Position numbers and translations under genes: made by a program. Positions 2,047 to 60,870 of a stretch of DNA of 64,000 nucleotides are shown here, one piece after another. This stretch comes from a virus (taxonomy: Duplodnaviria; Heunggongvirae; Uroviricota; Caudoviricetes): the IMG/VR virus record IMGVR_UViG_3300023371_000005; one strand, written 5' to 3'. The notes beneath the pieces were generated by a model. It was not told where the DNA came from and did no database searches. It saw nothing but the letters and a program-made list of their open reading frames with translations. The first letter of the stretch is position 1, and every line of letters begins with the position of its first letter.

Positions 2047-2182
2047 TAGACACATTAATTAAGACATTTGCTTGTTTTACAGACAAGTGAGTTTACCAAT
2101 TTCTCAAACTAACCTAAGGGCGGTTGGTATCGGACTCGAACCGATATTATTCTTAATAGAATAAATTTGCTGTGTGTGTCTA
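2047..2182 (-). ncRNA. Wrapper W4 enclosing a circularly permuted tRNA-Tyr(GTA)
   Basis: Variable arm, T arm and ACCAACC precede GGTTAGT, D arm and CTTGT-CT GTA AA-ACAAG. Confidence 0.8.
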
Positions 2183-2820: not shown

Positions 2821-2969
2821 ATGTATATATTATATCAAAAATTTTTTTGAAAATCAACTGTTGCGGGCCGCCTCAACCGCAACATAAAGCCCACCTAATT
2901 CTGATCCTTTTGGGCCCCATCCCCATATCCAGATTAGCGATTTGTCGCAAGAGTTCTGGAGGACTCTAT

Positions 2970-3481: not shown

Positions 3482-3559
3482 TAGACAGAAATTACTTTAA
3501 CATTTCTTAAACCCAAAATAAGCGTTTTTAGTAAAAAATATATTTGCTGTGTCTGTCTA
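3482..3559 (-). ncRNA. Wrapper W6 with degenerate cargo (Pro(TGG)-like anticodon arm)
   Basis: TAGACAG-AC-ACAGCAA...CTTAT-TTTGGGT-TTAAG...CTGTCTA-G. Confidence 0.65.
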
Positions 3560-4218: not shown

Positions 4219-4295
4219 TGGAGCCCCGAGTCGGATTCGAACCGACGACCTTTTGATTACTAATCAAATGCTCTGGCCAACTGAGCTATCGGGGC
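4219..4295 (-). tRNA. tRNA-Thr(AGT)
   Basis: TTTGA-TT AGT AA-TCAAA, CCA. Confidence 0.9.
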
Positions 4296-4452: not shown

Positions 4453-4540
4453 TGGCGGAGGAGACAGGACTCGAACCTGCACGCCCTTGCGGACGAACGG
4501 TTTTCTAGACCGTGGCAGTACCAATTATGCTTACTCCTCC
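4453..4540 (-). tRNA. tRNA-Ser(AGA)
   Basis: ACGGT-CT AGA AA-ACCGT, long variable arm, G73, CCA. Confidence 0.88.
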
Positions 4541-6217: not shown

Positions 6218-6335
6218 AAGACACATTGTTTGTTTTGCAAAATGTTGGACTCGAACCAACGACCTATTGTTTATCAGACAATTGCTCACCCATCTGAGCT
6301 AATCTCGCTACAAAGCTATTTGCTGTGAGTGTCTT
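6218..6335 (-). ncRNA. Wrapper W7 enclosing a whole tRNA-Ile(GAT) (6237-6308, no CCA)
   Basis: AAGACAC-TC-ACAGCAA...ATTGT-CT GAT AA-ACAAT...GTGTCTT-G. Confidence 0.8.
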
Positions 6336-7509: not shown

Positions 7510-7784
7510 ATATGTGGCGCCGGTTGCCAGCGCCTTTGGGTGGACCAGGGTCTTTCGACCAGCCCAGGATTGCAGATGATATTCGCGACTATCATTTTAA
7601 CGGGCCTGCTCATTTGTTTTTCTCGCCCGGTTGGTTATAGGTAACACTCTTAAACCACCGCTTTACGTCCCTTACTCGTGCTGCGGCCGCACGCAACCTG
7701 TATTTCTTAGCCCAGTTTAGGCAAAGGTTTCGCCCCGGTATTTCCAGTTTTTTCTGGTTTTCCTTCTCCTGGTGGCTTACCATC

Positions 7785-8519: not shown

Positions 8520-8910
8520 ATGTGGCGGATTTTGATCCGAATTCCGCGAACTCTCATTCAAGAAAAACGCATTTCAGGGTGTGCACCCCCATCCGCAGCA
8601 TCACGGGTCCGGTTTCCATTTCTGGCTGAAGCCGATAACAAATAAATTACCCTCTATTCTTAGCACCCGATGTGGGCCGTTTGCCTCTCTCGGCGGGCAA
8701 CCTGCGAAAGTGTTTCTGGTTGACACATAACCTCCCAGTTTCGTTCAGAAGTTTTAGTTTTAGTCCAAACTTCTAAGCCAACACCCCTGCGAAAAATACT
8801 TGTAAATGACCAAACAACTTTAAGCCCAGTTTATAACAGAGTTATTGTCGTTATCCATAATCATAATAATAACCCCTCACCGGATAACTGGTTATAAAAA
8901 AACCGGAGAT

Positions 8911-9063
8911 TTCCCATACTGGATTCGAACCAGTATCACACCTATTACTTCGTGCGTTCTGCCATTAAACTAATGGGACTTTCATCTACATATGTGTTCC
9001 TTATGGGACTCGAACCCACATCTCTTGCCCTCAAGCCATTCTCCCTACTTAAACTAAAGGAAC
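8911..9063 (-). ncRNA. Two tandem tRNA-like elements with defective anticodon arms (8911-8979, 8996-9063)
   Basis: Acceptor, D and T arms intact; anticodon arms are CAC-N10-GTG and CTTG-AGGG-CAAG; no CCA. Confidence 0.65.
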
Positions 9064-9808: not shown

Positions 9809-9990
9809 AAGACGGAGTTTTTTCGATCTTACGCTGCTCTACCAATCTAAGCTACACCCTTCATATCAGGGAACCGAAGTTCCCCTTAGTAGTCACCTAC
9901 GCCACCTTGCCAGGTGAGGGAAGGGTGGTTGGACTCGAACCAACGACCTGCGGCACCACAAGCTAATCTTTGAATCGCTGTTACCGTCTT
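9809..9990 (-). ncRNA. Wrapper W8 enclosing a circularly permuted tRNA-His(GTG)
   Basis: 3' half 9920-9961 precedes 5' half 9832-9862; perfect 8-bp GAAGGGTG/CACCCTTC acceptor. Confidence 0.8.
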
Positions 9991-11337: not shown

Positions 11338-12060
11338 TTACACTAAAAATGTTTCTCCAAAAATCATTTCATAATTCATATTATCATATTCCCAATATGG
11401 AATTCGAACCAATGGAATATTATTTATAATAGCATAATTATTTTTTTCTGCATCTGATGCTTGAGTACGAGACAATTTACTACGCTCCCAATTACTTTCA
11501 TGATAATGTTGTTCACCATCATACTCAACTAGACGAATAATTTTATTACTATTATCTAAAATGGCAAAATCAAAGCGTTTTTGACCTAAATTTTCTGGTT
11601 TATATTCTCTAATATAAGAAATATGATATTCTTCTAAAATATCAATAATTTTTTGTTCACCTTTTGAAATCCTAGAAAAACATCCACAGCTAGTTGTATT
11701 ACCAGTTCGTAAGTCTGATCCACTAATTGATTTTATATTACCACATTCACATTTACAAATCCATTTTATACGACCAAAATTATCCCTTTCTGAGTCCATC
11801 TCAAGAACAGTAAGTTTACCGTAAACATTACCTTTTTCATCTTTAGCTAATGCTTCAAAAACTTTTTCATTTCTCAAGCAACCACAACTTTTCGTTGCTC
11901 CATTTTTGAGACTTAAACCAGCAATGGTTTTTATATTACCACATTCACATTTACAATCCCAGTATGGTCGTTTATGTCGTTTTGATGCTTCTATATTTTT
12001 TGATAAAACAGTAAGTCTATGATAGGTATTACCAACAAGATTTTCACCAGTTTTTGGCAT
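11338..12060 (-). CDS. Putative free-standing homing endonuclease (CxCxCG repeats plus Vsr/PD-(D/E)xK-like domain)
   Basis: Two W.CKCECGN...KSCGC repeats, then RFDF...VEYDGEQH; AT-rich. Confidence 0.7.
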   Translation of the reverse strand: MPKTGENLVGNTYHRLTVLSKNIEASKRHKRPYWDCKCECGNIKTIAGLSLKNGATKSCGCLRNEKVFEALAKDEKGNVYGKLTVLEMDSERDNFGRIKWICKCECGNIKSISGSDLRTGNTTSCGCFSRISKGEQKIIDILEEYHISYIREYKPENLGQKRFDFAILDNSNKIIRLVEYDGEQHYHESNWERSKLSRTQASDAEKNNYAIINNIPLVRIPYWEYDNMNYEMIFGETFLV

Positions 12061-12135
12061 AAAAATATCACTCTCCTTCTATCTTTTATGATTTTTCAGA
12101 TAAAAAGATTGAAAATTTTTACCCAGAACTTTTTA

Positions 12136-13542
12136 TCAAAAATATTTTTTATTCCTTCCGCCTTCATTCCTATTTTCGTAGCAATGAGGACATAAATATG
12201 TTTCAGTTTCTTCACAGTAAATCTTATCTGAGTTGTAATATATGTAATCACACTCTTCGCAGCGGAAACACTCTGTGTCATAACACTGTTGACAGATCAA
12301 TTCTTCATTATCTCCAGCCACATATGCATCATCCACATACATACGACGACCGCAACAAGCGCAATGAGTATAATTTTCATTCTCTTCTACGCCATATGCC
12401 AACTCGCAATTATCACATCGCATTGTTTCTGAATTATCTACCCAGTCTTTGCCGCAATGTAGACAAGGCACAGAACCGCCCACTACAATGGGCTTTTCAA
12501 TCAACTTTCTTACACCGCTTCGGCTCAAAGTATTATTGAAAATCGCATAATAAGGATAGCGATAACAAGTAGAACGAAGAATGTCATTATAATTACGAGC
12601 ATATCTGCCTTCTACAACTACCTCTTGGAGTGGAGCTAAGAATCCGTTGACGATTACATACTGACAATTTAATGCCCGAGGATTGTCCTCAGGATTAGCA
12701 TCATGCGGGACATAACTGTCGATATAGTCATCTTTCCAGTTGAAATACTTATAATAGCCGAATGGATGTTCTTGTTGAATCAGATTATTATAAATATTCA
12801 GTACGGTATCAATTCCACTTTTAGAGCTAAATGGATACTGGCGTCCCGCAAACATGATAGTGCTGTCTTCATGCTCATGAATCAACATACGCCACTTCTT
12901 AGAGTTCCACTTTACAGAACCAAAGTTAGGAAGTTCTGCTTCATCCATGCCTTTGAGATAAACCATAAAGGTAGTGCGGTCAGTCATATAACTCAGATTA
13001 CCAGCACGATATTCTCCATCGAGGGCATGGCAACTGCGCCAGTTATATGTGTTCTCGCTACTGGACAGAAAATCCAAAGGATGAACTGAAAAACATAACT
13101 TACCCTTGATTTTATTCTCTTGGATAAGCTGGCTCGCTGCGTCCTGAATATTTCTCAGGGTTATGGGATTATGTTCAAAATACTTAAATGCCTTCAGTAG
13201 CTTCATTCCCTTTGGAATGTCACTACCTTCACATACATTTACAACTTTATTTTCAAAAAATCCATCCAGATTTTCATCAATAAACTCAGCCAAAACAGGA
13301 TTATTGAAAGTATCATAAACCTGGGTAGCAAAATCAGCTGCCCGACATCTCTTTTCCTTTTCATCCAAAGTAAATTCAATGGGTTCCGGCCATTCATAAA
13401 TCAAACCGCCGAATCTCTCAATAAACTTTTCCTTGGCAAGCTCCCAGTCGTGGAATAGAGCATCCACCTGGGGATCGGGAATTGATTGAGAATAACGAAT
13501 TACTTCGCAGAACTGTTCTTTGATTCTGTCGATTTCTCGCAT
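12136..13542 (-). CDS. Hypothetical protein, HPLDFL...W.SC family, C-terminal CxxC array
   Basis: Paralog of 17163-18758; start moved to the ATG after GGAGG. Confidence 0.75.
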   Translation of the reverse strand: MREIDRIKEQFCEVIRYSQSIPDPQVDALFHDWELAKEKFIERFGGLIYEWPEPIEFTLDEKEKRCRAADFATQVYDTFNNPVLAEFIDENLDGFFENKVVNVCEGSDIPKGMKLLKAFKYFEHNPITLRNIQDAASQLIQENKIKGKLCFSVHPLDFLSSSENTYNWRSCHALDGEYRAGNLSYMTDRTTFMVYLKGMDEAELPNFGSVKWNSKKWRMLIHEHEDSTIMFAGRQYPFSSKSGIDTVLNIYNNLIQQEHPFGYYKYFNWKDDYIDSYVPHDANPEDNPRALNCQYVIVNGFLAPLQEVVVEGRYARNYNDILRSTCYRYPYYAIFNNTLSRSGVRKLIEKPIVVGGSVPCLHCGKDWVDNSETMRCDNCELAYGVEENENYTHCACCGRRMYVDDAYVAGDNEELICQQCYDTECFRCEECDYIYYNSDKIYCEETETYLCPHCYENRNEGGRNKKYF

Positions 13543-14486
13543 ATTACCTCCGCACAAATCTTACAAATTTTCTTATCTTTGGCGGGGTCCTCAATCTCAT
13601 ATGCCTCGCCGCACAAATCGCACCATTCAACATTACCAACGATGCAATCGGGACAGTAGAACTTAGTCTTTCTATCAATGCCGATTACAGGGAATAATTC
13701 ATATTCACTGTATAACTTTTTACATTTACCGCAATGCTGACCATACACTACAGCACTTCTCCACCAACTAGCAGAAGAGAATACCATTTCATCATACTCA
13801 AAATCCGGAATCTCAGTTTCACACAACATCTTCTGGACTTTCGCAATGGTATCATATAATGGAGCAATATGAAGAGTTTCTACTTCACTATGCTCATCTT
13901 CATAACCAACAGACAGATTGACACCACAAATATTCCACTGAGGCATCAAGAAGCTAATGTCAGAGAATGAACCATATGCTTCACAGAAGCCGAAGCTTTC
14001 AACGTAGTCATAGAAGTCTTCATTGAAGCACTCGTAAAATACACAATCGTTAGTACCATGACGATCTAACTGAATCATATATTTCAGATTGGGAATGGGG
14101 CAATCTCTGCTTCCCAATGCAGTTGCTCCTAAACCGCCTTTCTCTTCATCGGTAGTGAAAATAATGGCTGGCCGCAATCCACTCTGGATAATTTTCAAAA
14201 TGGCAAAAATACCAGCTCGGTCATCGGCGCCAAGACCCTGTGGACTCCACAGAACGCCTTTTCGCTGGTCATAATATAAATCAGCTACGGGATTTTTGAA
14301 CACAGTATCCATATGAGCGACCAGCGCAATTGGAATATCTCCAATAGCAACGATATAATCTTTCGTAACGATTACTTTCTCATACTTCTCTTTTAGGTAT
14401 TGTGCCATAGCCTGGTGCAATCCTTTTTGTGTCAACGATACTAAGCGTTCAAATAATCTATAATCTTGATTACTTAGGACTCGCAC
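13500..14486 (-). CDS. M28/M20-like zinc hydrolase with C-terminal CxxC
   Basis: AHMDTV, GADDRAG, TDEEKGG, GYEDEH. Confidence 0.75.
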   Translation of the reverse strand: MRVLSNQDYRLFERLVSLTQKGLHQAMAQYLKEKYEKVIVTKDYIVAIGDIPIALVAHMDTVFKNPVADLYYDQRKGVLWSPQGLGADDRAGIFAILKIIQSGLRPAIIFTTDEEKGGLGATALGSRDCPIPNLKYMIQLDRHGTNDCVFYECFNEDFYDYVESFGFCEAYGSFSDISFLMPQWNICGVNLSVGYEDEHSEVETLHIAPLYDTIAKVQKMLCETEIPDFEYDEMVFSSASWWRSAVVYGQHCGKCKKLYSEYELFPVIGIDRKTKFYCPDCIVGNVEWCDLCGEAYEIEDPAKDKKICKICAEVICEKSTESKNSSAK

Positions 14487-46206: not shown

Positions 46207-47259
46207 ATGTTGAAATTAGATTATACTTTAGAATCTCCAGAAGAGAGAAGAGAATTGGTTGAAAAAATTCTAGCTGAAACCCCTAATCCCTCAGAGGCGT
46301 ATCTAGAAACTTTAGCTGATTATCTAGTTCTCTGTATGGAGAAACAAGAGAAAAAGGAGCGCAAACTATTAACTGATAACCGTATGGCTACAGTCAATAA
46401 GCGAGAAACTTCTTATGAAGGTCTTGTTTCCCAGCTAGAGAATGGCGAAGACGGCATTTATAATATGATAACTAATAATAAGAATACGATTTTCCAGCCA
46501 AAAGTAATGATAACTAAACAAGATGTAGAAGAAATACCCGGTATGTAGCAATTGCGCGACGCCATCAAAATGTGGGAAACAAAATTAAAGAGTGCCTCCG
46601 GGCGAGAAGCATTTATTATTAAGAGTACAATTATTGAATTGCGAAAAGATCAATATGTTTTGAAGAACGCTTATCGTAAACCAATTGTACCAACTAAAAT
46701 CACTCGTTCAAGACACGATATTCCTTTAGATGATGATTTCTGGTTTGATGACGAAGGCTATATTGTTCCAGAGGGTGTTTCTTTATGTAATCCAAAAGTA
46801 GTCTCAGCAATTCTTTGTAACTACTCCTTATGTAAACAAGAAAGTTGGGGAGAGTTTGAAAAAGATTTATGGTACTTGATGGATGACTTTGACAGAGTTG
46901 CGGATGCTGCTTTGAAAAATTATCCATTGTATGAACGAATTGTTGAGTATAAAATTGATGGATTACAAAATATTGATATTCAAGAAAAAATCCAAATGGA
47001 GTTTGGGATCAAGCATAGTTTGGAATATATCTCAAGTTTATGGCGTAATAAAATTCCAAAGATCATTGCGTCCGAGGCGGAAGATAGACTCTTAAATTGG
47101 TACTTCATGAATGAAATGAAGGGCAAATACAAAAAGTGCAGTCGTTGCGGGCAAGTCAAATTAGCTCACAATAAATACTTTAGTAAAAATAAGACAAGCC
47201 GAGATGGTTTTTATAGCATTTGCAAATGCTGTAGAAATGCGAAGGCCAAAAGCGTGTAA
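46207..47259 (+). CDS. Hypothetical protein with HTH-like segment and C-terminal Zn finger (one in-frame TAG)
   Basis: ORFs 46207-46548 and 46552-47259 are in one frame, separated only by TAG 46546-46548. Confidence 0.75.
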
Positions 47260-47303
47260 TTCCTCGCTGCTATTTTCATATTTTGTAAAGGAGGAATTTA
47301 TAT

Positions 47304-48503
47304 ATGGCCCAAGAATCTTATTACTGTGAAAAATGTAATAGAACAATGGCGGCCGACCAGTTCTACGGTACTAATAATTTAGAAAAATATCCTGATGGTA
47401 AATTGCGCATTTGTAAGAAATGTATGACAATGCACGTAGACAATTTCAATCCGGATACTTATTTATGGATTTTACAAGAATGCGATGTTCCATATATTCC
47501 AGAAGAATGGAATAAATTATTGGCATCATATGGTAAAGACCGCAGTAAACTGACTGGTCTGTCAATTATTGGTAGATATCTATCAAAAATGAAATTGAAG
47601 CAATTCCGAGATTATCGCTGGGAACACACCGAGCATCTTCAAGAAGTTGCGAATAAGAAAATTGAAGAGACGATGAAGCGTCAAGGATATGACGCAGTTG
47701 AAATCGCTCAAGCTGTCGCTCAGGCGACTGTCCCCGTCCCGCAGGGCATCATCGAACAACCAAAGTATGAAGAACCTAATCCATTCTTGGCATCTGGTGA
47801 AGAAGATTATTTTTCAGAGCAAAATGGTGGTCAAGATGACTTTGTTGATGATTTGACTGAAGAGGATAAAACCTATTTGCGTTTGAAATGGGGAAAAACT
47901 TATAAACCCGAAGAATGGGTTCGATTAGAACAGCTATATGAAGAAATGATGGCATCATATGATATTCAAGGTGCCGGACACATCGATACACTAAAATTGG
48001 TATGTAAGACATCTCTAAAGGCGAATCAATTAATCGACATTGGCGATATTGAAGGCTTCCAAAAGATGAGCAAAGTTTATGATAGTTTGATGAAGTCTGG
48101 TAAGTTCACCGCACAACAGAATAAAGCTGAAAGTGGTGACTTCGTTGATTCAATTGGCGAACTAATTGAAATGTGCGAAAAACAAGGATATATTGAAAGA
48201 TATTATATTGAATCTCCAAAAGATAGAGTTGATATGACAATTGCGGATATGCAGAGATATACTAAAACTCTGGTTGAAGAAGAAACCAATTTGTCAATCA
48301 TGGTTGAAAAGGCTCTACGTGATATTGAGAAAGAAGATAAGGCTGAAGCTGAAAATACTGAAGATACAATTATCGATGATATTGATTTGAGTCTTGAGGA
48401 TTTGGAAAAGACCTTGAAAGATCAAGATTATGTGGATTTCCAAGACTTCTTAGATGAAGAAGCTGAAGCTGACTCTGATTACTTGAATCGAGGTAGACGG
48501 TAA
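47304..48503 (+). CDS. Zn-binding protein upstream of TerL (possible small terminase)
   Basis: CEKC...CKKC; stop overlaps the TerL start. Confidence 0.55.
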   Translation: MAQESYYCEKCNRTMAADQFYGTNNLEKYPDGKLRICKKCMTMHVDNFNPDTYLWILQECDVPYIPEEWNKLLASYGKDRSKLTGLSIIGRYLSKMKLKQFRDYRWEHTEHLQEVANKKIEETMKRQGYDAVEIAQAVAQATVPVPQGIIEQPKYEEPNPFLASGEEDYFSEQNGGQDDFVDDLTEEDKTYLRLKWGKTYKPEEWVRLEQLYEEMMASYDIQGAGHIDTLKLVCKTSLKANQLIDIGDIEGFQKMSKVYDSLMKSGKFTAQQNKAESGDFVDSIGELIEMCEKQGYIERYYIESPKDRVDMTIADMQRYTKTLVEEETNLSIMVEKALRDIEKEDKAEAENTEDTIIDDIDLSLEDLEKTLKDQDYVDFQDFLDEEAEADSDYLNRGRR

Positions 48504-50242
48504 TGGCTTTACAAGATTTACTTGATTTATCAACATCCCGGAGAAAGATTGGTCTTTCTCCGGAACGTGTTGAGGCTGTTATGCCTACAATACGAAAGTA
48601 CATAGCCTTTTGGAGAGAATATCCTGATTTATTCGTTGACTTTATGGTACGTGGAACTAGTACCGAAGTAAAAGATGGAGAATTCTGTTTTTATTTCTAT
48701 CAAAGAGTTTTCCTTCGTTGCGTTATGAGATATTAGTATGTGTATGCGGTTTTTCCTCGTGCATATTCTAAATCTTTCTTGACTGTTATGGCATTGATGT
48801 GCCGTTGTATTTTATATCCCAATGCTCACTTGTTTGTCACTTCTGGTGGTAAGGAGCAGGGTGCTTCTATTCTACAAAGTAAAGTAGAAGAAATTTGTAA
48901 ATTGATTCCCAGCTTTGAAAGAGAAATTGACTGGGGACGAGGTAAGACTTTAACTGGTAAAGATAAAGTCCGATATGTATTTAAGAATGGTTCTGTTCTG
49001 GATAACCTTGCGGCCCGTGAATCTACGCGTGGTCAGCGTCGTCATGGCGGCGTAATGGAGGAATGTGTTGGTATTGATGACCAAATCCTTCGCGAAGTTA
49101 TTATCCCTGTTATGGCTATCTCTCGTCGTGCGAAAGATGGTACTACTAATGAAAAAGAACCTTTGAATAAATCTCAGATTTATATTACAACTGCTGGATA
49201 TAAAGGAACTTATCCATATGATAGATTGATTGGTTTCTTGGTTCGTATGGTCACTCAGCCCGATCGCTGTATTGTGCTTGGTGGTACTTGGAGAACGCCA
49301 GTGGCAATGGGATTACAGAGTAAAACATTCATTACCGACCAGAAGAATGAAGGTACTTATAATGAAGCCTCTTTCGAGCGTGAGTATGAGTCTAAGTGGT
49401 CTGGTACTGTTGAAGATGCATTCTTCAATGGAGAACATTTTACTCGTAATAGAAAATTATTACAACCTGAATATGAACATTCCGGAAGGTCTGCGGCCGG
49501 CGCTTATTATGTGCTATCAGTCGACGTAGGTCGTAAGGGATGTGATTCTGTTGTTTGTGTATTCAAGGTGACGCCGCAGGCGCAAGGCCCTGCTATCAAG
49601 TCTTTGGTAAATATTTATACAATGGCTGATGAACACTTTGAAGATCAAGCAATTAAGCTGAAAAAACTGTTCTATAAGTATAAAGCTAGAACTCTCGTAA
49701 TCGACGGTAATGGTGTTGGTTTGGGTCTAATTGATTATATGATTAAATCTTAGAATGATGAAAATGGAGACTTCTATCCTGACTTTGGCGTTCAAAACGA
49801 CGATGAAGGTTATTATAAAAAGTATAGAACAGCTAATACTGAATATGATGCTATGTATATTATCAAGGCAAATGCGCCAATCAATACAGAGTGTCACGCA
49901 AACGCACAAAGCCAACTTGCGGCCGGTAAGGTAAAATTCTTGATTGATGAAAGAACAGCAAGAGAAAAATTACTGGGAACCGCAAAAGGTTAGAAAATGA
50001 AGCCTGAGGAAAGGGCAGAATACCTTCAACCATTTACCCTAACTTCCATATTGAAAGAGGAAATGATGAATTTGCGTGAAGAAAATGAAGGCATAAATAT
50101 CATTTTGAAACAAGCAAATCGTGGAATTAGGAAGGATAAGTTTTCTGCGTTTGAATATGGTTTGTATTATATAAAACAAGAAGAAGATAAAAAGAAGAAG
50201 AAAAAGAGATTTAACGCTGCTGATTGGGCGTTTTATAATTAA
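48503..50242 (+). CDS. terL: Terminase large subunit (3 in-frame TAG)
   Basis: FPRAYSKS, RGQRRHGGVMEE, LSVDVGR, VIDGNGVG; TAGs at 48734, 49751, 49991. Confidence 0.92.
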
Positions 50243-50253
50243 GGAGGGTTGAC

Positions 50254-50610
50254 ATGAGAGCATCTCGCGGTGAGATTAAGATTGAAGAAATCTTAAAAGA
50301 AGCTGAGCTTACTTTTAAGATGGAATATATCTTCCCTGACTTAAAGAGCCCCAATGGTCGCCCTTTAAGATTTGATTTTGTCGTTTTTGATGATGATGGT
50401 AAAATTGATTTTATTATTGAATATCAAGGAAAACAGCACTATGAACCAAGTGCGAAGTTCGGTGGTAAAAAAGGATTTTATCAACAGCAATACAATGATA
50501 ATCAAAAGCGACGCTTTTGTGCTTTACATGATTTTCGTTTAATTGAAATACCATATACAGATGAAAACTTGATCTCTTATGACTATATCATGAAATTAGC
50601 AGGATATTAA
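50254..50610 (+). CDS. Vsr/PD-(D/E)xK-like nuclease domain protein
   Basis: LRFDF...IEYQGKQH; matches the C-terminal domain of 11338 and 15809. Confidence 0.7.
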   Translation: MRASRGEIKIEEILKEAELTFKMEYIFPDLKSPNGRPLRFDFVVFDDDGKIDFIIEYQGKQHYEPSAKFGGKKGFYQQQYNDNQKRRFCALHDFRLIEIPYTDENLISYDYIMKLAGY

Positions 50611-50624
50611 AAGGAGGTGGAGTT

Positions 50625-52223
50625 TTGGATAAGTTAACTAGACAAGAAGAAATTCGTGCCAAAGGTTTTGACATGGGTGGAACTACCTATGGTAAAATTA
50701 AAATTGGAACTAAAACACTTGAAGATGCCGTTTTGAATTTAGGTTCAATTCAAAAGGAAACTAGAAACATCATCAATAAAGGCGTTATTTATCGTGCGCT
50801 TGCGGATAATGATGTTGAGAAGTTAAGAGAGATTTCTAATTACTTCTATAAGACCAGCGGTATCTATCAAAGAGTATGTAATTATTTCGCTACTATGTAT
50901 CGTTATGATTGGTATGTTGTTCCAGAAGTATACGATGAAAGTATCAAAGAAGAAAAGATTGTTGGAGATTTCCATAAGGTCTTGAACTTCTTAGATAATT
51001 CATATGTCAAAAAAGTTTGCGGTGATATGGCTCTTGGCGTTATCAAGAATGGCGCTTATTATGGATATATCGTTCCCACCTCAAAAGGAATTATTATTCA
51101 AGAGTTGCCTGTAAATTATTGCCGTTCTCGTTTTAGTTTGAATAATTTACCAACTGTTGAGTTCAATATGAAGTTTTTTGATGTTATGTTCCCAGATACT
51201 GGATACAGAATGAAAGTATTGAATTTGTTCCCAGAAGAGTTCAAGAAGGGATATGCTGCTTACAAGAGTGGTAAGTTACTTCCTGAAAGTCCATGGGATA
51301 GAGATAGTGGTTGGTATTTGTTGGACCCAGAGAAAACCGTGAAATTTAGTTTTAGTAATGGTGGATTCGGCGGTGTCGATTTACCATTATTTATCAATGC
51401 GATTCCTCTTATTTTGGATTTGGATGCGGCTCAGGATTTGGATCGTAGAAAGCAAATGCAAAAGTTATTGAAAATTGTAGTTCAGAAACTCCCATTAGAT
51501 AAAAATGGTGATTTGATTTTTGACGTCGATGAAGCAAGAGATATTCATAATAATGCTGTTTAGATGTTGAAGCGTGCGGTTGGTGTTGACGTATTGACTA
51601 CTTTCGCTGATATTGAAAGTATTGATATGTCTGATAAGAATACTACTACTACTCAAGATGACTTGATGAAAGTTGAGCGTAGTGTATATAATGCTTTTGG
51701 TGTTCCGCAAAGTTTATTTAACTCTGATAGTAATTTAGCAATGAATTTATCTGTGCTAAATGATGAAGGTGCGGTCCGCACCTTGTTGCTACAATTTGGT
51801 GTTTTCTTTGATAGACTAACACAGAATTTTGGTGCGAATAAAAAGAAATACAATTTTAGATTCTATATGCTTGAGACTACTCAGTATAACTACAAAGAGT
51901 TGTCTAAGATGTATAAAGAATGTGTTCAGTTAGGATATTCTAAGATGTTGCCTCAAATTGCTTTAGGCCATTCTCAGAGTGCTATCTTGAATACTGCTTA
52001 CTTTGAAAATGAAGTTTTACATTTGAGTGAAGTTATGATTCCTCCGCTGATGTCTTCTACTATGAATATGCAAGACTTAAAGGGCAATTCTAATCAAACT
52101 CAAACTAACAAAACTCAAACTAAATCAGGAGGATAGTCTTCTGAGAAGTCTGCGGGCCGACCGGAGAAACCAGACAATCAAAAGAGCGATAAGACTATCC
52201 AAAATAAAGAATCTATGAGCTAA
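50625..52223 (+). CDS. Portal protein (2 in-frame TAG)
   Basis: Position after TerL; TAGs at 51561 and 52134; 532 aa ending GRPEK...KESMS. Confidence 0.8.
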
Positions 52224-52234
52224 GGAGGAGCAAG

Positions 52235-53761
52235 ATGCATACAAGTATTAAGTTAGATACACCTGTTGAGTTTATCAACATTACTCCTCTCAATCCTTTG
52301 ATTTCTAAATGTCAGATTAAGGTGTGCTACGTAAGCGATGAACCAAATCGTAACCGTAGTATCATCACCAAAGAAGTTGCAAAGCAAATGGCTAATTCAT
52401 TGCCAGGATGCCCTATCGTTGGTTTTTATAATGAAGATAAGGGCGACTTTGAGGAGCACAATCGTATCATTGATATTTCCAATGGAAAGTTCGAGATCAA
52501 GGATACTACTCGCCCATACGGTTTCGTTGATTTGAGTGCGAAAGTTTGGTTCCAAAAGTTCTTGGATGATGGAATGACTGAGCGAGAGTATATGATGACT
52601 GAGGGCTGGTTATGGACCGGCCAATATCCAGAGTGCCGCAGAATCCTGGCACATGGAAATAATCAATCCATGGAATTGGATGAAGGTACATTAGATGCTC
52701 ATTGGTCAAAAGATGGTAATGGAGATCCCAAATTCTTTATTATCAATGAAGCAATTATTTCAAAACTTTGTACTCTTGGTGAAAGTAATGAACCCTGCTT
52801 CGAGGGTGCCAACATTACTGCACCTACCATTCAATTCGCTTTTGAAGATGGCTTTAAAGAGCAACTATTCTCTATGATGAACGAATTGAAAGAATATTTG
52901 AATAAAGGAGGAGAAAAAGTGTTTACTAGATATGCTGTTGAAATCGGTGACGCTTTATGGACCGCTCTTTATAGTCGCGTTGAAGATGCTTACGTTATTG
53001 AGAGCGTATGTGAAGATGGTGAGCAGAAGTTCGCTGTTGTTACTGCCGATGATAAGTATTACCGTTTAGATTTCTCCATCGCTGAAGACGGCGTAATTGA
53101 GTTCGCTGCTGAACCTGTTTTGATGGAAGAGTATACTCCATCTGAAGAGCCTCAGTTTGATCCTGTCGCTGTTGATGAATATGCCAAGTCTAAGAAGGCC
53201 GCCAAGAAGGATGAAGATGATGACGAGCCTGAAAAGAAAGATGGCGAAGGCGAGGAAGAAAAGTGCCCTAAGTGCGGCAAGCCTAAGTCTGAGTGTGAAT
53301 GCGAAGACGAAGATGACGACGATAAAAAGAAAAAGGGCAAGAAAGAAAAATACAATCTTGATGAAATTCAAGAATATGTAGAGCTAAGCTCCAAATATTC
53401 TGACTTGGAGACTAATTATAATGCTGCTCAGGAAAAAATCGCTGACCTAGAAGCTCAGATTGGTGAGTTGACTGCATTTAAGAAGTCCATTGAAAAGGCA
53501 GAAAAAGAGAAAATGATTGACAGTTTCTATATGCTGTCTGATGATGACAAGAAGGATGTTATTGAGAACATCGATACTTATTCTCTGGATGATATTGAAG
53601 CTAAGCTATCAATTATTTGTGTTCGCAACAAGGTCAGTTTCAACCTTGATGATGATAAGAACAATGGCGTAACCACCTATAATTTGGATGGTGGAGTTCC
53701 TGCGGACGAGACTGTTCCCGCTTGGATTAAAGCCTTGCGTTCTGTTGCGAGTGAAATGTAA
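52235..53761 (+). CDS. Prohead protease/scaffold-like protein
   Basis: Between portal and capsid genes; acidic low-complexity and coiled-coil C-terminus. Confidence 0.6.
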   Translation: MHTSIKLDTPVEFINITPLNPLISKCQIKVCYVSDEPNRNRSIITKEVAKQMANSLPGCPIVGFYNEDKGDFEEHNRIIDISNGKFEIKDTTRPYGFVDLSAKVWFQKFLDDGMTEREYMMTEGWLWTGQYPECRRILAHGNNQSMELDEGTLDAHWSKDGNGDPKFFIINEAIISKLCTLGESNEPCFEGANITAPTIQFAFEDGFKEQLFSMMNELKEYLNKGGEKVFTRYAVEIGDALWTALYSRVEDAYVIESVCEDGEQKFAVVTADDKYYRLDFSIAEDGVIEFAAEPVLMEEYTPSEEPQFDPVAVDEYAKSKKAAKKDEDDDEPEKKDGEGEEEKCPKCGKPKSECECEDEDDDDKKKKGKKEKYNLDEIQEYVELSSKYSDLETNYNAAQEKIADLEAQIGELTAFKKSIEKAEKEKMIDSFYMLSDDDKKDVIENIDTYSLDDIEAKLSIICVRNKVSFNLDDDKNNGVTTYNLDGGVPADETVPAWIKALRSVASEM

Positions 53762-53788
53762 TAAAAACTAATAAGGAGGAAAATAGAA

Positions 53789-54607
53789 ATGCTTAGAGAA
53801 TTATTGAAGAAGCATATTAAGTCTCAGGCAGAGTTCGTAGAAGTCGGCTACGGTCAGGTTGAACCCAACCACCTAAGCGCTCAGAGAACTGCTCAGATTT
53901 ATGCTCAGTTGCCTGCTGATCCTGCTATTAAGGTTCTAGAGCAGGGACAGTTTGTTAAGTATGACTATGCAGCTGGCCTTGTAAACTTTACTGGTGCAGG
54001 CGAGTGGATGCTTGTTTATAACGAAATCAAGTTGTATCGTGAGCATCAGTTAGATTGCGAGTTCGCAATGTTAAAAGACAATTATCAGGCTCGTGTTTAT
54101 AGCCCATTGGATCACACCAAGCCTGAGGAGATGTACGGTCCTACCCGTTTCATGAACGGCGTAAGAGAGCGTTATAATCCTACTACCGGCGCTTTCGAGC
54201 AGTTGGATGAAATCAAGAATCCTGAGACTGGCGAAGTTGCTGATTACAGCGTTATTTCTAGCGTACATGACTACTATGAGATGAACGACATCAACAATCC
54301 TGAAATCGAGGGAGACGCTCGTAAGAGATTGTTCATGAAGTTGCGTGATTACCAGGAGAAGATGATGCCCGCAGGTACTACTATGGTTCCTCGTGTATTC
54401 AAGACTAATGTTGGTGACCACTACACTACCAACCTAATCCATGCTGAACCCGGCTCTTTGAAGGAGTTCGATCTATTGGCTCCTCGTGCTGCCGATGGTA
54501 TCTTAGAGCCTGTTGCTGATGCTTCTGGCGATATGGTATGGCAGGTTGCTAAGGTTTACACTATGCCTGACCACCAGCCTGGTGTCAAGGTTATTAGAAT
54601 TAAGTAA
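53789..54607 (+). CDS. Head structural/decoration protein
   Basis: Immediately before the capsid gene, strongly biased codons, no TAG. Confidence 0.6.
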   Translation: MLRELLKKHIKSQAEFVEVGYGQVEPNHLSAQRTAQIYAQLPADPAIKVLEQGQFVKYDYAAGLVNFTGAGEWMLVYNEIKLYREHQLDCEFAMLKDNYQARVYSPLDHTKPEEMYGPTRFMNGVRERYNPTTGAFEQLDEIKNPETGEVADYSVISSVHDYYEMNDINNPEIEGDARKRLFMKLRDYQEKMMPAGTTMVPRVFKTNVGDHYTTNLIHAEPGSLKEFDLLAPRAADGILEPVADASGDMVWQVAKVYTMPDHQPGVKVIRIK

Positions 54608-54626
54608 TTGAAAGGAGAGAAGTATA

Positions 54627-55766
54627 ATGGCTTTAGATAAGAAAAATTTAGTACAGCTGGCAAAGACTGTAGCAAAAGCTGACCCTTCTGCTCCTGTTTC
54701 TTACAGCTTCAATGGCGAAAGTTTTAACTATGAGACTCTAAATGAGACTCTACGCCGTGAATTCAATGAGATTGCTGGTACTTACGCTTTGTATCGTGAG
54801 AACAAGCACCTGATCTTCGCAGTTATCGAAGAGACTATGGACGAGGTTCTGCCTAAGAAGGTTGAGCAGGCTTATATGCAGTTTGCTGAGACCAAGCAGT
54901 TCGCTCAGGGCGACAAGCCTATTTTCCGTCGTAAGAGAGACGTTCGTCAGCGCGCTAAGCAGTTCGTAACTCGCGTTGGTCTAGCAGGTATTTACGAAGT
55001 CTTCAAGCTAGGTCCTAGTGAAGAAGAGAGCTTCGAAGTCCGCACTAGCGCCATCGGTGGAGCTGCTCAGATCGGCTTCGAAGAGTTCTTGGATGGACGT
55101 GTTGACTTCGCTGAAGTAACTAATATCGTCATGGAAGGCATGAACGAGTTGATCATGAAGGAAGTTGGTCATGCACTAGCTGCTTCTATCAATCAGTTGC
55201 CTCCTGCTAATATCGCTGTTGTTAATGGTTTCGACGAGCAGGAATTCGATCGCTTGTTGGTTATCGCTTCTGCTTACGGTGAGCCTACCATTTACTGCAC
55301 TTACGAGTTTGCCGTAAAGATGGTTCCTACCGAGGGTTGGAGATACACTGAGTCCATGAAGCAGCAGTTGTGGGATACTGGTCACTTGGCTACTTACAAG
55401 GGACGTAAGGTTGTTATTCTACCCCAGGGCTTAGAGGATGAGACCAATATGCGCAAGGTAATCAATCCTGGTTACTGCTACATCATCCCCGCTGGTGCTG
55501 ACACCAAGCCTGTGAAGATTGCTTTCGAGGGTAATACCATTGTTGACGAGTTCAATAACTATGACCGTTCTCGTGATATTCACGTCTATAAGAAGGTCGG
55601 CGTTCTAGCTATGTTGGCTAACAACATCTGCGCTTACGCTGATGCTAGCTTGTTGGGTCAGATGGATATTGCTGGCTCTGTTTGGGATAGCACTGCTTAT
55701 GTAAGTGAAGTTAAGGCTTATGCTGAGTCCACTTACAATCCTAACTACGAGTTCCCAAAGGTTTAA
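54627..55766 (+). CDS. Major capsid protein
   Basis: 379 aa, strong codon bias, head-module position, followed by terminator 55789-55830. Confidence 0.8.
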   Translation: MALDKKNLVQLAKTVAKADPSAPVSYSFNGESFNYETLNETLRREFNEIAGTYALYRENKHLIFAVIEETMDEVLPKKVEQAYMQFAETKQFAQGDKPIFRRKRDVRQRAKQFVTRVGLAGIYEVFKLGPSEEESFEVRTSAIGGAAQIGFEEFLDGRVDFAEVTNIVMEGMNELIMKEVGHALAASINQLPPANIAVVNGFDEQEFDRLLVIASAYGEPTIYCTYEFAVKMVPTEGWRYTESMKQQLWDTGHLATYKGRKVVILPQGLEDETNMRKVINPGYCYIIPAGADTKPVKIAFEGNTIVDEFNNYDRSRDIHVYKKVGVLAMLANNICAYADASLLGQMDIAGSVWDSTAYVSEVKAYAESTYNPNYEFPKV

Positions 55767-55854
55767 TTTAATATAAAATAATTAGTTTAGAGGGGGAAGA
55801 GGGGATATCCCCACTTCCCCCTATTTTTTATTATGAGAAAAAGGAGATAATACA

Positions 55855-56439
55855 ATGGCTATTTTTAATGTAAAGAACAGAGGTGCTAGTTGGGTCACCT
55901 ATAAGATTCCAGAAGACGGAATCCGCAGAAGTTTTGCTCCCGGCGAAGTAAAGAAAGTTAGCGATGTTGAATTGGAAAAGCTAACTTATCAGCCTGGTGG
56001 TATGGTTATTCTTTCCCAGTTCCTTCAGATTCAAGACGAAGTTGCTCTAAGAAATTTGAATATTCGTACTGAGCCTGAGTATCATATGAGCGAAGCAGAT
56101 GTTGCTGCTTTGATTAGAACTGGTTCTTTAGATGCTTTCTTAGATGCTCTTGATTTTGCTCCAGCTGGAGTTATTGATTTGATCAAGAAGTTGAGCTTGG
56201 AAATTCCTCTAATGGATTTGGGTAAGAGAAAGGCTTTGAAAGATAAGACTGGTCTTGATGTCGATGCTGCTCTAAAGAACAGAGAAGCTGAGAAGGAAGA
56301 CGAGAATGGTGGAAATACCATCCTAAAGCAGACTGAGCGTAGAGTGAAGACTGAGGAAGTCGCTCCTGGTCGTCGTACCACTACTCCTAAGTACAATATT
56401 ATTAAGACAGAGCCAGCAGCTGATAAAGCTACTGAATAA
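55855..56439 (+). CDS. Virion-associated hypothetical protein
   Basis: Follows the capsid gene. Confidence 0.7.
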   Translation: MAIFNVKNRGASWVTYKIPEDGIRRSFAPGEVKKVSDVELEKLTYQPGGMVILSQFLQIQDEVALRNLNIRTEPEYHMSEADVAALIRTGSLDAFLDALDFAPAGVIDLIKKLSLEIPLMDLGKRKALKDKTGLDVDAALKNREAEKEDENGGNTILKQTERRVKTEEVAPGRRTTTPKYNIIKTEPAADKATE

Positions 56440-56461
56440 TAAAATATAAGGAGGCAATTAT

Positions 56462-57040
56462 ATGACATTATTTTCGTCTGTCTATAATCGCTTTCTTGGA
56501 CAAGTTACCGATGACCTCTATCTAGAGCTCACTCCAGAAGATACATTAAGAGATTTACAAAATCTTTTGCTTAATGCAATTCCGGGTTTTGAATTTCCTA
56601 GACAAAATCTTTATGATTATACTCTTAATTTGACAGAAAAGCTGGAAAGTGATGTAACCCCTGATGAATTTATTTTAGGTACTATCTGGGGTAATTTAGA
56701 TGGAGAATTATTAGAAACTCCTAAAGTCCTAGTAGATAATTCACATTTTAATGTTGAACTTACTGCTGAGGAAATTAATATCTTGGCGCTTTTAATGAAA
56801 CAAGGTTGGGTTCAGCGTCAAGTAACTTCAATTGAAAATACTCGTATGAAATATAGTGGAAGCGATTTTAAAATGACTTCTCAAGCTAATCATTTATCTA
56901 AGTTATTAGCTTTGTTAGAAGAGAGTCGAAGAGATTCTTTCCATATGCAAAGACTATATAAGCGTCGTAAATTTACGGCCGATGGTAAATATGCCTCCAA
57001 CTGGGGCAGTTTAATGGAGACTAGTGCTCTTGATTACTAA
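56462..57040 (+). CDS. Probable head-tail adaptor/neck protein
   Basis: Synteny only. Confidence 0.55.
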   Translation: MTLFSSVYNRFLGQVTDDLYLELTPEDTLRDLQNLLLNAIPGFEFPRQNLYDYTLNLTEKLESDVTPDEFILGTIWGNLDGELLETPKVLVDNSHFNVELTAEEINILALLMKQGWVQRQVTSIENTRMKYSGSDFKMTSQANHLSKLLALLEESRRDSFHMQRLYKRRKFTADGKYASNWGSLMETSALDY

Positions 57041-57335
57041 GTATGGTTTTGAATTTCGTGTGTATGATATTGAAGTAAATGTTCGTCGCTTAACCAACCA
57101 ATTATGGAAGCTAATTCCAATGCGCGAACACGAAGAAGATTGGCTGAAACAATTAGATACAGTAACTATTGAGATTGCGGGACTGAATGAAATTTTTACA
57201 GGCCCGCAATTTTTACAGATGTTATGTAAATTAGAGGGATTAAAGACCTAGGAAACAGAATTTGAGCTATATCGCAAAACTGTGTTTGAATGCATTAGTT
57301 TATTGTAGGAGCTAAACCATGGCATCAGGTTATGA
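57024..57335 (+). CDS. Hypothetical protein (2 in-frame TAG)
   Basis: TAGs at 57249 and 57306; ends at TGA overlapping the next start. Confidence 0.65.
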
Positions 57336-58365
57336 TTTAAGTAGTCAAATCCCTTTTAGATTGATGAAAGGCCGATTAGGAGTTTATGATAAAAGAAAGT
57401 TTGATCCAAAGAAGAGTGGGGTTGATGGAGTTCTTCATCAATCAGCTCGTATGGGACAAGCTGGCGGTAATCTATAGCAAGAGCGAATGATTAAAGATAA
57501 ACGTCGTTCTTTAGACCATGCGGTTTGGTATTCTTATCAAGGTGCAAAAGTTATTCCTGTAGATGCGAGCGATCGGACGCCGATCCGCGCACTTATCAAT
57601 CCGAATAAGTTGAAAATGGATTATGATGATAAAATTATTTCAGTGGGCTATGAATATAACTTTGCTCCTGGAACGGTTTTTGAGTGGGTTGGTACAGGAA
57701 CTTATTGGATTGTACAATTACAAGATTTAACTGAATTAGCTTATTTTCGTGGAGATATAAGAAGATGCCGTTATGAAATTGCTTGGGAAGATGAAAACGG
57801 TAAGCATAAAACTTATGCGGCTGTTAGAGGTCCCGTTGAAACGAAAATCAATTATATTCAAAAGCATGGAATAAGTGTTGATACTCCTAATCTTTCGCTG
57901 AATCTTTATTTACCATTAAATGAAGATACAAAAAATTATTTCAAACGTTATTCTAAATTTTATTTGTAGAATGATGATACTTGTTGGCGTGTTGAAGCTC
58001 TTGATTGGATTTCTACTCCTGGTATTTTAGAGATTGCCGCAGTTGAATATTATGCAAATGAATTTGAAGATGATGTTGAAAATGGTGTTGTAGATGGATT
58101 AATTGAAGAAATTCCAGATCCAAATGTAGCTGGTGGTAAGATTATTGGTGATACCTTCATTAAAATTAGACAACCTGCTGTGTTTAAATTTGATGGTAAT
58201 ATTGGAGCAGTCTGGGAAGTGGATAAAAAATATCCTGTGACCTTAGATATTGATAAAGATGATCCTCGTATAGTAGTAGTTACCTGGGAAGGATCATTCA
58301 GCGGTTAGTTTGAATTGAGATATTCAAAATATAGTAAGACTATTGTAGTAGAATCTCTATTTTAA
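57319..58365 (+). CDS. Probable head-closure/neck protein (3 in-frame TAG)
   Basis: GGNL[TAG]QERMIKDK; TAGs at 57475, 57967, 58306. Confidence 0.7.
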
Positions 58366-58391
58366 GAACTAAGAGTAAAAGGAGTGTTTAT

Positions 58392-58982
58392 ATGAAAATT
58401 GAAACTTATACATATCCTAAGTCTAGTTTTTTAGCTTTAGAAAAGGATATGGGTATTATTGTTTAGATGATTATGAAAAATGATCGTTTAAAGAAAATGC
58501 TTTATTACACAACCAAGGATTGTTTAGATAGACCAAAACTAACTAAAATGTAGACCAATAGTTTATTTGGAGAGCAAATAAAAATTGTTCCAAAATTATA
58601 TATAGATCATTCTGTATTAAATTATATTATCGTTAGTTTTGATAATTTTGTACCAAATCGTACTAATCCAGAATTTAGAGATAATATTATTGAATTTGAT
58701 ATTATTTGTCATTATGATCAATGGCATATGAAAGATTTTGAATTGCGTCCATATAAAATTGCAGCAGAATTAGATTCTATGTTTAGTGAATAGCATTTAA
58801 CTGGCATTGGTAAATTAGAATTTAATGGTGCTAATCAAATTTTACTTACCGATGAATATGCTGGTTTATGTATTACTTTTAGAGCAATCCATGGAGAAGA
58901 AGATAAAAAATTTATGCCGAATCCAATGGATGAAGAGGCATTTATTGAGAACTTTAATGCAATTTTTAATGAGGATAAATAA
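58392..58982 (+). CDS. Probable tail-completion protein (3 in-frame TAG)
   Basis: Absent from the ORF track; a continuous 196-aa frame when TAG is read as Gln; GGAG RBS. Confidence 0.7.
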
Positions 58983-58984
58983 TT

Positions 58985-59710
58985 ATGGATACTAGATTAG
59001 CTCTAATGTGTGGAGCTGATTATCCAGTTCCAGAATTATAGATTACAGTTCATTAGCCTCAAATAAAAGAAATTGCATATATTGGGGAGACAGATTTTTT
59101 CTCAGGAGTTCAATGTTTGTGTTTGAATAAATCTATGTTTGTAAAGGACGAAAGTGATTTACTCAATACGAGCAACTTTTAGATATTTATGACGATAATG
59201 TCAGAAAAAGAAGCGGCAGATAAAAAAAGAGCTGTTTAGCAAGTTTGTTCTTTGTTTTTTCCAAAACATAGATTGCTGATGACACCACGCTCTGTGCTAT
59301 TAAGTGATGGCTCAGCAAATATTCAAATTGATGAAACTAACTTTGAATTTTTACAAAATGCTATATCAACTATTTGCTGTTTAAAAACTGGCCCTATGGA
59401 TCAGACAACTTTCAATCCCGCAGATGCTAAAGCGAGAGAGATCGCTGAAAAACTTATGCGAGGACGTTAGAGAGTTGCGGCTCAAAAGGGCGAAACTAAC
59501 ACAAGTATATTTAGCCAATATCTTTCAATCATTACTGTAGGACTACATTCAATGTCTCTACAAGACGCGACTGAATTGACCATGTTCCAATTATACGATT
59601 TAGTTGAAAGATATATGCTATATATTAATTGGGATATGGATATTCGGTCTCGGTTGGCTGGCGCAAAGCCGGATTCTTAGCCGGATAACTGGATGAAAAA
59701 TATCCACTAA
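58985..59710 (+). CDS. Tail-associated hypothetical protein (6 in-frame TAG)
   Basis: 241-aa frame, e.g. TVH[Q]PQIKEIA, RGR[Q]RVA, DS[Q]PDNW. Confidence 0.75.
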
Positions 59711-59733
59711 TATTTTTAAGGAGGATACTACCT

Positions 59734-60786
59734 ATGAAATTTGGCGTTCGCGAAATTTGTGATGTCGTTCTAAAGGCAAAGGCCGCTCAGAAGGTTGGTA
59801 ATAAAGTCTTCTATAAGAATGAGCCTGTTATTTATTTCGACACTTTGAAGACTTCCAGCATGGAAGGTACTGCTACTACTTCTTACGCACAGGGCGGTCG
59901 TGGTAACTCTCGTCTAATCGCTTGGGAAGGTGAGAGAACTGTTACTTTCACTATGGAAGATGCATTGATCTCTCCCGCTGGCTTCATGATTCTATCTGGT
60001 GCTGGCTTGGTTGAGGCTACTTCTAAGAACACTCTAAAGGTTCACACTACTGAGCAGACTAATAAGGTTAGAGTTGAAGGTACTGAAGTTCAGATTGTTT
60101 TGACTCAAAAGCCTTACGTTGGTAAAATGAATGCTGATGGTGCTTTAGTTGGTGCTCATGAAGATTTAATTTATGTTATGAAGTTAGATAATGGCGAAGT
60201 TGCTACTGAACCATATATTCCTGATCACAATGCTGTTACCGCTGTTGTCTTTGATGAAGAGAGCGATTGGTATGCACCTATGGCTGATGGTACTTCTGAA
60301 GACGAGGCCGATGGTTGGATGATTGTATTGAATGGTGCCGCTGTCACTGGCGCAAGACCTTCTCGTGAAGCTAACCCTGGTTTTGATGAAGTAAATGTAT
60401 TTGCTAACGAAGATGTCGTATTGGTCGACTATTATGTTGAACACGCATCTGCCGCACAGCAGATTGAGATTACTCCCGACAAGTTCGGTGGTAACTACTA
60501 CTTAGAGGCTTCTACTCTATTCCGTGATACTAACGGTGTTGATATGCCTGCTGAGTTCATCATTCCTAACTGCAAGATTCAGTCTAACTTCACTTTCACC
60601 ATGGCTTCTTCTGGTGATCCATCTACTTTCACCTTCACCATGGACGCATTCCCAGACTACACTCGCTTCGATCCTACTAAGAAGGTTCTAGCTGCTATCC
60701 AGATCATCCAGACTGGTAACGCTGCTGAAGTCGGAGCACGTACTCGTACTTCTCACGATCCTGCTCACGAGAAGTATTTGATGTAA
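59734..60786 (+). CDS. Major tail (tube) protein
   Basis: 350 aa, biased codons, no TAG, followed by terminator 60808-60842. Confidence 0.7.
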   Translation: MKFGVREICDVVLKAKAAQKVGNKVFYKNEPVIYFDTLKTSSMEGTATTSYAQGGRGNSRLIAWEGERTVTFTMEDALISPAGFMILSGAGLVEATSKNTLKVHTTEQTNKVRVEGTEVQIVLTQKPYVGKMNADGALVGAHEDLIYVMKLDNGEVATEPYIPDHNAVTAVVFDEESDWYAPMADGTSEDEADGWMIVLNGAAVTGARPSREANPGFDEVNVFANEDVVLVDYYVEHASAAQQIEITPDKFGGNYYLEASTLFRDTNGVDMPAEFIIPNCKIQSNFTFTMASSGDPSTFTFTMDAFPDYTRFDPTKKVLAAIQIIQTGNAAEVGARTRTSHDPAHEKYLM

Positions 60787-60870
60787 TTTACAATTAAATA
60801 ACTTTTTAGGGGAGAGATAAGAAATTATCTCTCCCCTTTTTTGTTTTATCCGGAGAGAAAGGAGAAAATA

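Follow-up and report, generated by a model that had tools for sequence, protein, structure and literature searches.

How should a tRNA be read whose pieces stand in the wrong order? Positions 2047-2182 of a 64,000-nucleotide stretch of tailed-phage DNA (IMG/VR record IMGVR_UViG_3300023371_000005; hereafter the window) hold the parts of a tRNA-Tyr(GUA) opened between its anticodon arm and its variable arm, and a sequence-only reading had proposed that this element may be the phage's Tyr tRNA or a decoy. The analysis reported here indicates that it is most likely a sealed look-alike of a tRNA and not a working tRNA. It is a two-module small non-coding RNA, in which a constant handle, consisting of a terminal helix and an unpaired ACAGCAA motif, carries a complete L-shaped tRNA mimic whose acceptor is sealed by a loop. 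The window belongs to a large phage genome from gut or rumen; its tRNA island has 29 genes called by ARAGORN and a ROOL RNA, and structural genes lie further to the right.

A complete tRNA body clamped by a handle

All the parts named in the sequence-only reading were found on the minus strand, where it had placed them and in the order it gave. An 8-bp terminal helix, with its 5' arm at 2175-2182 and its 3' arm at 2047-2054, clamps the body together with the ACAGCAA motif at 2167-2173. Within this clamp the order is variable arm, T arm, acceptor stem, D arm and anticodon arm, all on the minus strand. The long variable-arm hairpin (2149-2162) corresponds to tRNA positions 44-47; the T arm (2129-2145) has 5 bp and a canonical T loop, and the base that precedes it is U48, the Levitt partner of A15. 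The acceptor stem (2108-2128) is encoded with its 3' strand first (2128-2122), then a closing 7-nt loop (2121-2115) and the 5' strand (2114-2108). Six of its seven positions are paired, the exception being an A5.C68 mismatch, and the loop starts with G73 followed by CCC and not CCA. A class-II type D arm with a 3-bp stem and GG in the loop (2089-2105), recognized in the reordered tRNA call and in the alignment, and an anticodon arm with the loop CU-GUA-AA (2071-2087) complete the body, and a 16-nt linker separates the anticodon arm from the 3' arm of the handle. As encoded, the element drew no ARAGORN call and no Rfam match. When its pieces were restored to normal order, ARAGORN called a complete cloverleaf, tRNA-Tyr(gta).

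An identical copy is present in a second IMG/VR contig, L118, and an independent DNA run of 2024 yielded a contig that spans 2067-2181 with zero differences, so the element is not a mis-assembly; the comparison with read runs rests on contigs only. In the contigs of two other DNA runs, the 117 nt that lie between tRNA-Pro(GGG) and the element (2182-2298) are missing, and the element adjoins the tRNA there, as it does in relatives.

The fold is conserved and the anticodon is exchanged

Eight aligned homologues support this anatomy. In their alignment 97.7% of cells were paired, a value that is partly circular since the structure was derived from the same 8 sequences. Changes on both sides of a pair are not circular, and these were found at 18 of 27 pairs, in all five helices. 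None of 500 shuffles equalled this covariation, and slid controls were 31-46% paired. In the handle, 7 bp were paired in all eight homologues, two of them with two-sided changes, and the ACAGCAA motif was invariant in the alignment. Six of the seven acceptor pairs and all five anticodon-stem pairs covary; the A5.C68 mismatch recurs in 4 of the 8. The variable arm persists as a hairpin of altered sequence in nearly all orthologues, among which the Levitt pair also covaries (A15:U48 versus G15:C48). Judged by these comparisons, the fold of the element is under selection.

A search of about 90 records with a covariance model enlarged the set to 21 distinct orthologous sequences, some of them nearly identical. 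The anticodon loop was CU-NNN-AA in 21 of 21, and the triplet within it took eight forms. GAU (Ile) was the commonest, with 9 sequences, followed by GUA and UAA (3 each), UGA (2), and CCA, GAA, CUC and CGU (1 each), so that besides Ile and Tyr the anticodons read as Trp, Leu, Ser, Phe, Glu and Thr. The three GUA copies had been retrieved by patterns biased towards GUA; Tyr is therefore a minority state. A pattern scan for further Tyr copies returned mostly ordinary tandem tRNAs, and two candidates, in L024 and L031, were discarded as false parses. In the two closest relatives, the same genomic slot holds the handle, the variable, T and D arms and an identical anticodon stem, with the triplets GAU and CCA. 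Between two copies of 124 nt there are about five differences, among them one in the anticodon (UGA versus UAA).

Other features that would specify an amino acid vary as well. N73 is any of the four bases and does not track the anticodon: copies with GAU have U, G, A or C at this position, G73 occurs with GUA and A73 with CCA, and the long variable arm is joined to class-I anticodons. CCA is encoded in 0 of 17 parsed orthologues, whose acceptor loops have 3-8 nt. What the set keeps is the L shape of a tRNA and a proper anticodon arm; acceptor identity and anticodon are free. Conservation in related phages, which the sequence-only reading had made part of the test of its proposal, holds for the fold and fails for the Tyr identity.

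The same handle carries many cargos

Eight copies of the stem followed by ACAGC(A/G)A are present in the window, all of them on the minus strand and within the tRNA island; the rest of the 64 kb has none. At least 5 more handles lie in the 14 kb by which contig L118 extends the window, giving at least 13 in the tRNA island overall. Some of these handles carry a tRNA body, either permuted or unpermuted and lacking CCA; others carry a bare anticodon stem-loop or nothing tRNA-like. Because the cargos differ under the same handle, we regard the terminal module as the constant part and the tRNA body as its cargo. The claim that permutation is not tied to one position is correct in another sense: relative to the anticodon arm, the handle may stand on the 3' side, stand on the 5' side or replace the arm.

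The seven sister RNAs of the window (all minus strand) illustrate this variety. Those at 717-794 and 1222-1284 carry a Cys(GCA)-like anticodon stem-loop and a Lys(UUU)-like anticodon loop. Unpermuted, CCA-less bodies of Gly(UCC) and Ile(GAU) type are found at 2703-2820 and 6218-6335, and a short cargo at 3482-3559 begins directly after the CCA of tRNA-His. The RNA at 1397-1505 has a T arm, a closed acceptor with G-CCA and a D arm. It also shows an apparent UCA anticodon; the UCA loop is missing in two close relatives, which keep the G-CCA of the acceptor loop and a U-run, and on its sequence this RNA is a candidate for opening by RNase P and not a suppressor. At 9809-9990, a permuted body has a structured insert in its acceptor loop. 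This conserved two-hairpin insert of about 57 nt recurs in relatives (L264 near 3095, L266 near 1835), where it sits in different handle RNAs, and from its appearance it may act as a small ribozyme or a processing signal. Elsewhere in the same phage, a T arm and a Tyr-like CU-GUA loop occur together in a further handle RNA, at L118:7817-7912. Exchange of the anticodon on an identical stem (GUA versus GCA, between L025 and L334) is also seen in a second subtype, whose anticodon arm lies 5' of its T arm.

The window contains no ordinary tRNA-Tyr by ARAGORN, as had been noted, and we considered whether handle RNAs supply the tRNAs missing from it (Tyr, Lys, Cys and Gly-UCC). This was ruled out, since all four are ordinary genes in the overlapping contig L118.

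A candidate sigma70-type promoter lies at 2829-2857 (minus strand; 10 of 12 consensus positions, extended -10), and its function is putative. The unit that it would drive comprises the handle-Gly element, tRNA-Ile, two tRNA-Pro and the 2047-2182 element, and the next promoter match starts at 2030. Release of the element from a polycistronic precursor is suggested by one close relative, in which it begins directly after the CCA of tRNA-Pro(GGG). Our literature search found no paper describing this RNA family or ACAGCAA together with a phage tRNA.

Handles are coupled in the genome to a protein with a predicted Ro60 fold

The phage encodes a DUF2828 protein (L118:14206-15717) on the same strand as the element, 12.6 kb downstream. 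Its predicted model (predicted local distance difference test score, pLDDT, 74.8) drew 13 Foldseek matches at E<=0.001, all 13 of them Ro60/TROVE proteins, the best at 1e-8. Compared with the Xenopus Ro60-RNA structure, it gave a VIA Z of 17.2 and a root-mean-square deviation of 4.7 over 364 aligned residues. A sequence search of the PDB found no match for the protein, and the Ro60 link comes from the fold search only; Pfam TROVE was not found in five records. As modelled, the phage DUF2828 protein folds like Ro60. We found no paper on DUF2828 as an RNA-binding protein, and an earlier mention under ROT/TROVE (Burroughs and Aravind 2016) is possible.

DUF2828 is encoded in 12 of 12 complete virus records that the handle motif had retrieved and in 0 of 30 control virus records. 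It was also present in all 18 complete relatives picked by their capsid, and all 18 matched the handle pattern. Searching outward from DUF2828 gave the same association: 59 of 80 bacterial and 51 of 80 viral loci had two or more handles close by (more than 90% on the strand of the gene), compared with 0 of 53 bacterial and 0 of 30 viral control loci. In Ruminococcus, Butyrivibrio and related genomes, handle arrays stand just upstream of DUF2828, within about 1 kb, and the order of the bacterial locus is WYL regulator (36 of 67), handle array, DUF2828 and RtcB (34 of 67).

Several observations adjoin these loci. Contigs L407-L473, from gut Firmicutes and, in two cases, from Promethearchaeota (Asgard), have handles just upstream of DUF2828; the Firmicute loci often have WYL and RtcB, and a few have RlaP or NADAR neighbors. 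In the phage, the tRNA island and the DUF2828 gene are separated by a stretch that encodes a ParE/RelE-like protein, an EcoRI-type methylase and a GmrSD-HNH nuclease (L118:10536-10802 and 11694-14083). One record (G005; 402 kb; L264 and L265) contains a pair of tRNA islands and a pair of DUF2828 genes, as though the genomes of two related phages had been joined end to end.

Handle RNAs resemble YrlA-type Y RNAs

The nearest known parallel is the bacterial Y RNA YrlA (RF02553), in which a V arm, T arm, closed acceptor and D arm follow one another without an anticodon arm (PMC4201824). The element shares with YrlA-type RNAs this order within a terminal helix and the covariation of the Levitt pair, and in both cases there are several RNAs per locus and linkage to a ring protein with a Ro60 fold (a predicted one for the element), with RtcB as a further linked gene in bacteria. 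The two differ in that the element retains a full anticodon arm, has the motif ACAGCAA in place of GNCGAA, and has a DUF2828+DUF7788 protein, not Pfam TROVE, as its presumed partner. The RF02553 model gave no match at 2047-2182 at E up to 10; on two sister elements it scored 43.7 and 31.7 bits, below the cut-off of 69. A phage precedent is phiLo, which pairs Ro60 with Yrl RNAs (PMC12135203).

The bacterial handle/DUF2828/RtcB loci, whose regulator is WYL-type and not RtcR, parallel the Salmonella rtcR-rsr-yrlBA-rtcBA operon, for which tRNAs cleaved in the anticodon loop are the inducers (PMC7790460). The authors of that study propose YrlA as a possible competitive inhibitor of an anticodon nuclease (PMC7790460).

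A further likeness, to the Class I RNAs of dictyostelids (PMC7919456), is a lead only. Those RNAs also have a short stem that joins the ends, an AAG start, an unpaired, conserved 11-nt motif by the 5' arm and a variable interior, and by inspection the element matches four of the five motif positions (T3, C6, C9, A10 and A11), with T3 missing and no Rfam match. Unlike the element they are eukaryotic, 42-65 nt long and free of tRNA-like cargo, and their reported partner is an RRM protein.

A proposed ring-bound tRNA mimic and its alternatives

We consider the element to be, with fair probability, a Y-RNA-like partner of a Ro60-like ring, which uses a tRNA mimic with an exchangeable anticodon as bait. 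In this model the RNA would be trimmed out of a polycistronic pre-tRNA transcript, and its handle would dock it on the phage's DUF2828 ring as Y RNAs bind Ro60. Binding to the ring through the handle, presumably at ACAGCAA, is likely. The RNA is very probably neither ligated at 43/44 nor used in decoding. Once bound, it would display an elbow and an anticodon loop of the right shape on a molecule that cannot be charged. Host enzymes that read anticodon loops could then take the mimic as bait or as a competing substrate, the likeliest targets being the anticodon nucleases of defense or stress systems. This decoy role is compatible with the evidence and is the function that we tentatively prefer; if it holds, a target of this kind would be the reason why the triplet keeps changing while the frame of the loop stays fixed. 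That the same handle carries cargos unable to be tRNAs, either bare anticodon stem-loops or none, favors the Y-RNA-like reading. A more speculative extension, which we regard as doubtful, is that handle RNAs and the DUF2828 ring form an undescribed, reprogrammable tRNA-decoy system in which phages, and gut bacteria whose loci adjoin WYL and RtcB genes, show unchargeable tRNA mimics and bare anticodon loops on the protein ring and swap the anticodon to match the tRNA-cleaving defense of the host, or in which cleavage of the loop acts as a signal for RNA repair.

Several points weigh against this reading. Expression, binding and function of the RNA are all inferred. Contigs from two RNA runs never cover the element fully, contain no circularizing back-joint and give no evidence either way on transcription. 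The GNCGAAN0-1G motif near the 5' end, including the Ro60-binding core GNCGAA of YrlA, is absent in 8 of 8 homologues. The ring protein has only 11-17% identity to solved Ro60s, and the 12.6 kb between its gene and the element exceeds the 4 kb typical of YrlA. Co-occurrence of handles and DUF2828 in phages partly reflects shared descent. The anticodon arm is optional, as a variable-arm subtype in L246-L248 and L261 lacks it, and the biased retrieval of the GUA copies noted above belongs here too.

The strongest competitor keeps the same ribonucleoprotein and makes the tRNA body merely a stable scaffold or tether, for example to polynucleotide phosphorylase (PNPase) or an RNA ligase, as in RYPER. 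The triplet would then drift, or recombine with tRNA genes, under a frame held by folding or by modification of A37. In nearly all loops A36 or U36 stands before A37-A38, and these are the usual substrates of N6-isopentenyladenosine (i6A) and N6-threonylcarbamoyladenosine (t6A) formation. [quoted passage not shown] However, covariation at five anticodon-stem pairs and a 7-nt frame that is invariant in 21 sequences are more than a passive hairpin requires, and many sister RNAs consist of anticodon stem-loops only. We judge this alternative unlikely.

Less probable still is a handle-held tRNA in two pieces, made when host RNase P and 3' trimming open the acceptor loop and CCA is added, as in Mycobacterium smegmatis YrlA, which is cleaved and CCA-tailed. 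Such a product might be aminoacylated, or might engage synthetases, EF-Tu or T-box leaders. The 7-bp acceptor with G1-C72 in most copies would suit this, as would the CCA encoded in the loop of sister subtypes (19 of 51). Yet none of the 17 parsed copies of the present subtype encodes CCA and their loops go down to 3 nt; N73 is unconstrained, the acceptor pairs do not track the anticodon, and half of the aligned homologues carry the A5.C68 mismatch.

It is highly improbable that the element is a genuine circularly permuted tRNA gene, in which the handle would mark excision and ligation at 43/44, a phage or host enzyme would circularize the product, and RNase P, RNase Z and the CCA enzyme would release tRNA-Tyr. 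The cloverleaf called after reordering speaks for it, as does the RNA ligase domain of some relatives. With bacterial tRNA-Tyr(GUA) the element shares the GUA triplet, A37-A38, the long variable arm, G1-C72 and the class-II D arm. A Tyr tRNA, however, needs A73 as its discriminator; the element has G73, no CCA and a sealed acceptor, and orthologues place Ile, Trp, Phe, Glu and Thr anticodons on the same long-variable-arm body. In addition, the phage has a canonical, CCA-ending tRNA-Tyr(GUA) at L118:4561-4650, about 3 kb from the element and about 920 bp past window position 1, to which the element has no special sequence likeness, and three relatives have one also. The incoherent identity and the redundancy with this gene are decisive, and the proposal that the element is the phage's Tyr tRNA is not supported.

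The tRNA-splicing endonuclease EndA is not known from bacteria, and EndA (PF01974) was not found in 5 near-complete related genomes in which positive controls matched. Neither RtcB nor a CCA-adding enzyme was found in the five, nor was T4 Rnl1, in a search without a positive control. There is no bulge-helix-bulge (BHB) motif at the junction of the element; two of eight homologues have one stray match each, in different places and off the junction, and the distance from handle to junction varies among orthologues. Known permuted tRNA genes, from red and green algae, a nucleomorph and Thermofilum, likewise put the 3' half first, with a short spacer across the acceptor end, and yield a cloverleaf on reordering (PMC3978253). 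Their spacers are 1-74 nt and CCA need not be encoded; since algal permuted tRNAs gain CCA later, its absence here does not alone rule out maturation (PMC3978253). But their junctions, of types I-IV, are at 20/21, 37/38, 50/51 or 59/60, and 43/44 is not among them (PMC3978253). We found no paper on a permuted tRNA in phages, and a true one would be a first; the evidence is against it.

Finally, a decayed, functionless rearrangement of a tRNA gene, which the modest folding of the single sequence (z = -1.97 only) and the absence of the element from several related genomes might suggest, is refuted by the compensatory changes that all five helices show and by the covarying Levitt pair in about 21 sequences, and can be dismissed.

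Other features of the genome

Late genes at 46207-62196 (plus strand) are open under genetic code 15 (TAG = Gln), for example 48503-50242, 50625-52223 and 60841-62196, and a tRNA with a CUA anticodon is found at L118:7673-7747 and in relatives. On the minus strand are a full ROOL RNA (26-651; 323 bits); two A34 tRNAs, Thr(AGU) at 4219-4295 and Ser(AGA) at 4453-4540, conserved in two relatives; a partial Rfam match to DUF3800-XI RNA (7531-7566); and two degenerate tRNA-like Rfam matches with no ARAGORN call (8910-8979 and 8995-9063).

Implications

Permuted-looking tRNAs of phage genomes need not be tRNA genes. If the Y-RNA-like reading is right, the handle RNAs would constitute a second Y-RNA-like branch, absent from the catalogues searched, and would provide an RNA partner for DUF2828. 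They would also offer a set of naturally occurring tRNA mimics whose main difference is the anticodon, and with it the role of the tRNA-like domain of bacterial Y RNAs, including the soaking up of anticodon nucleases, would become directly testable.
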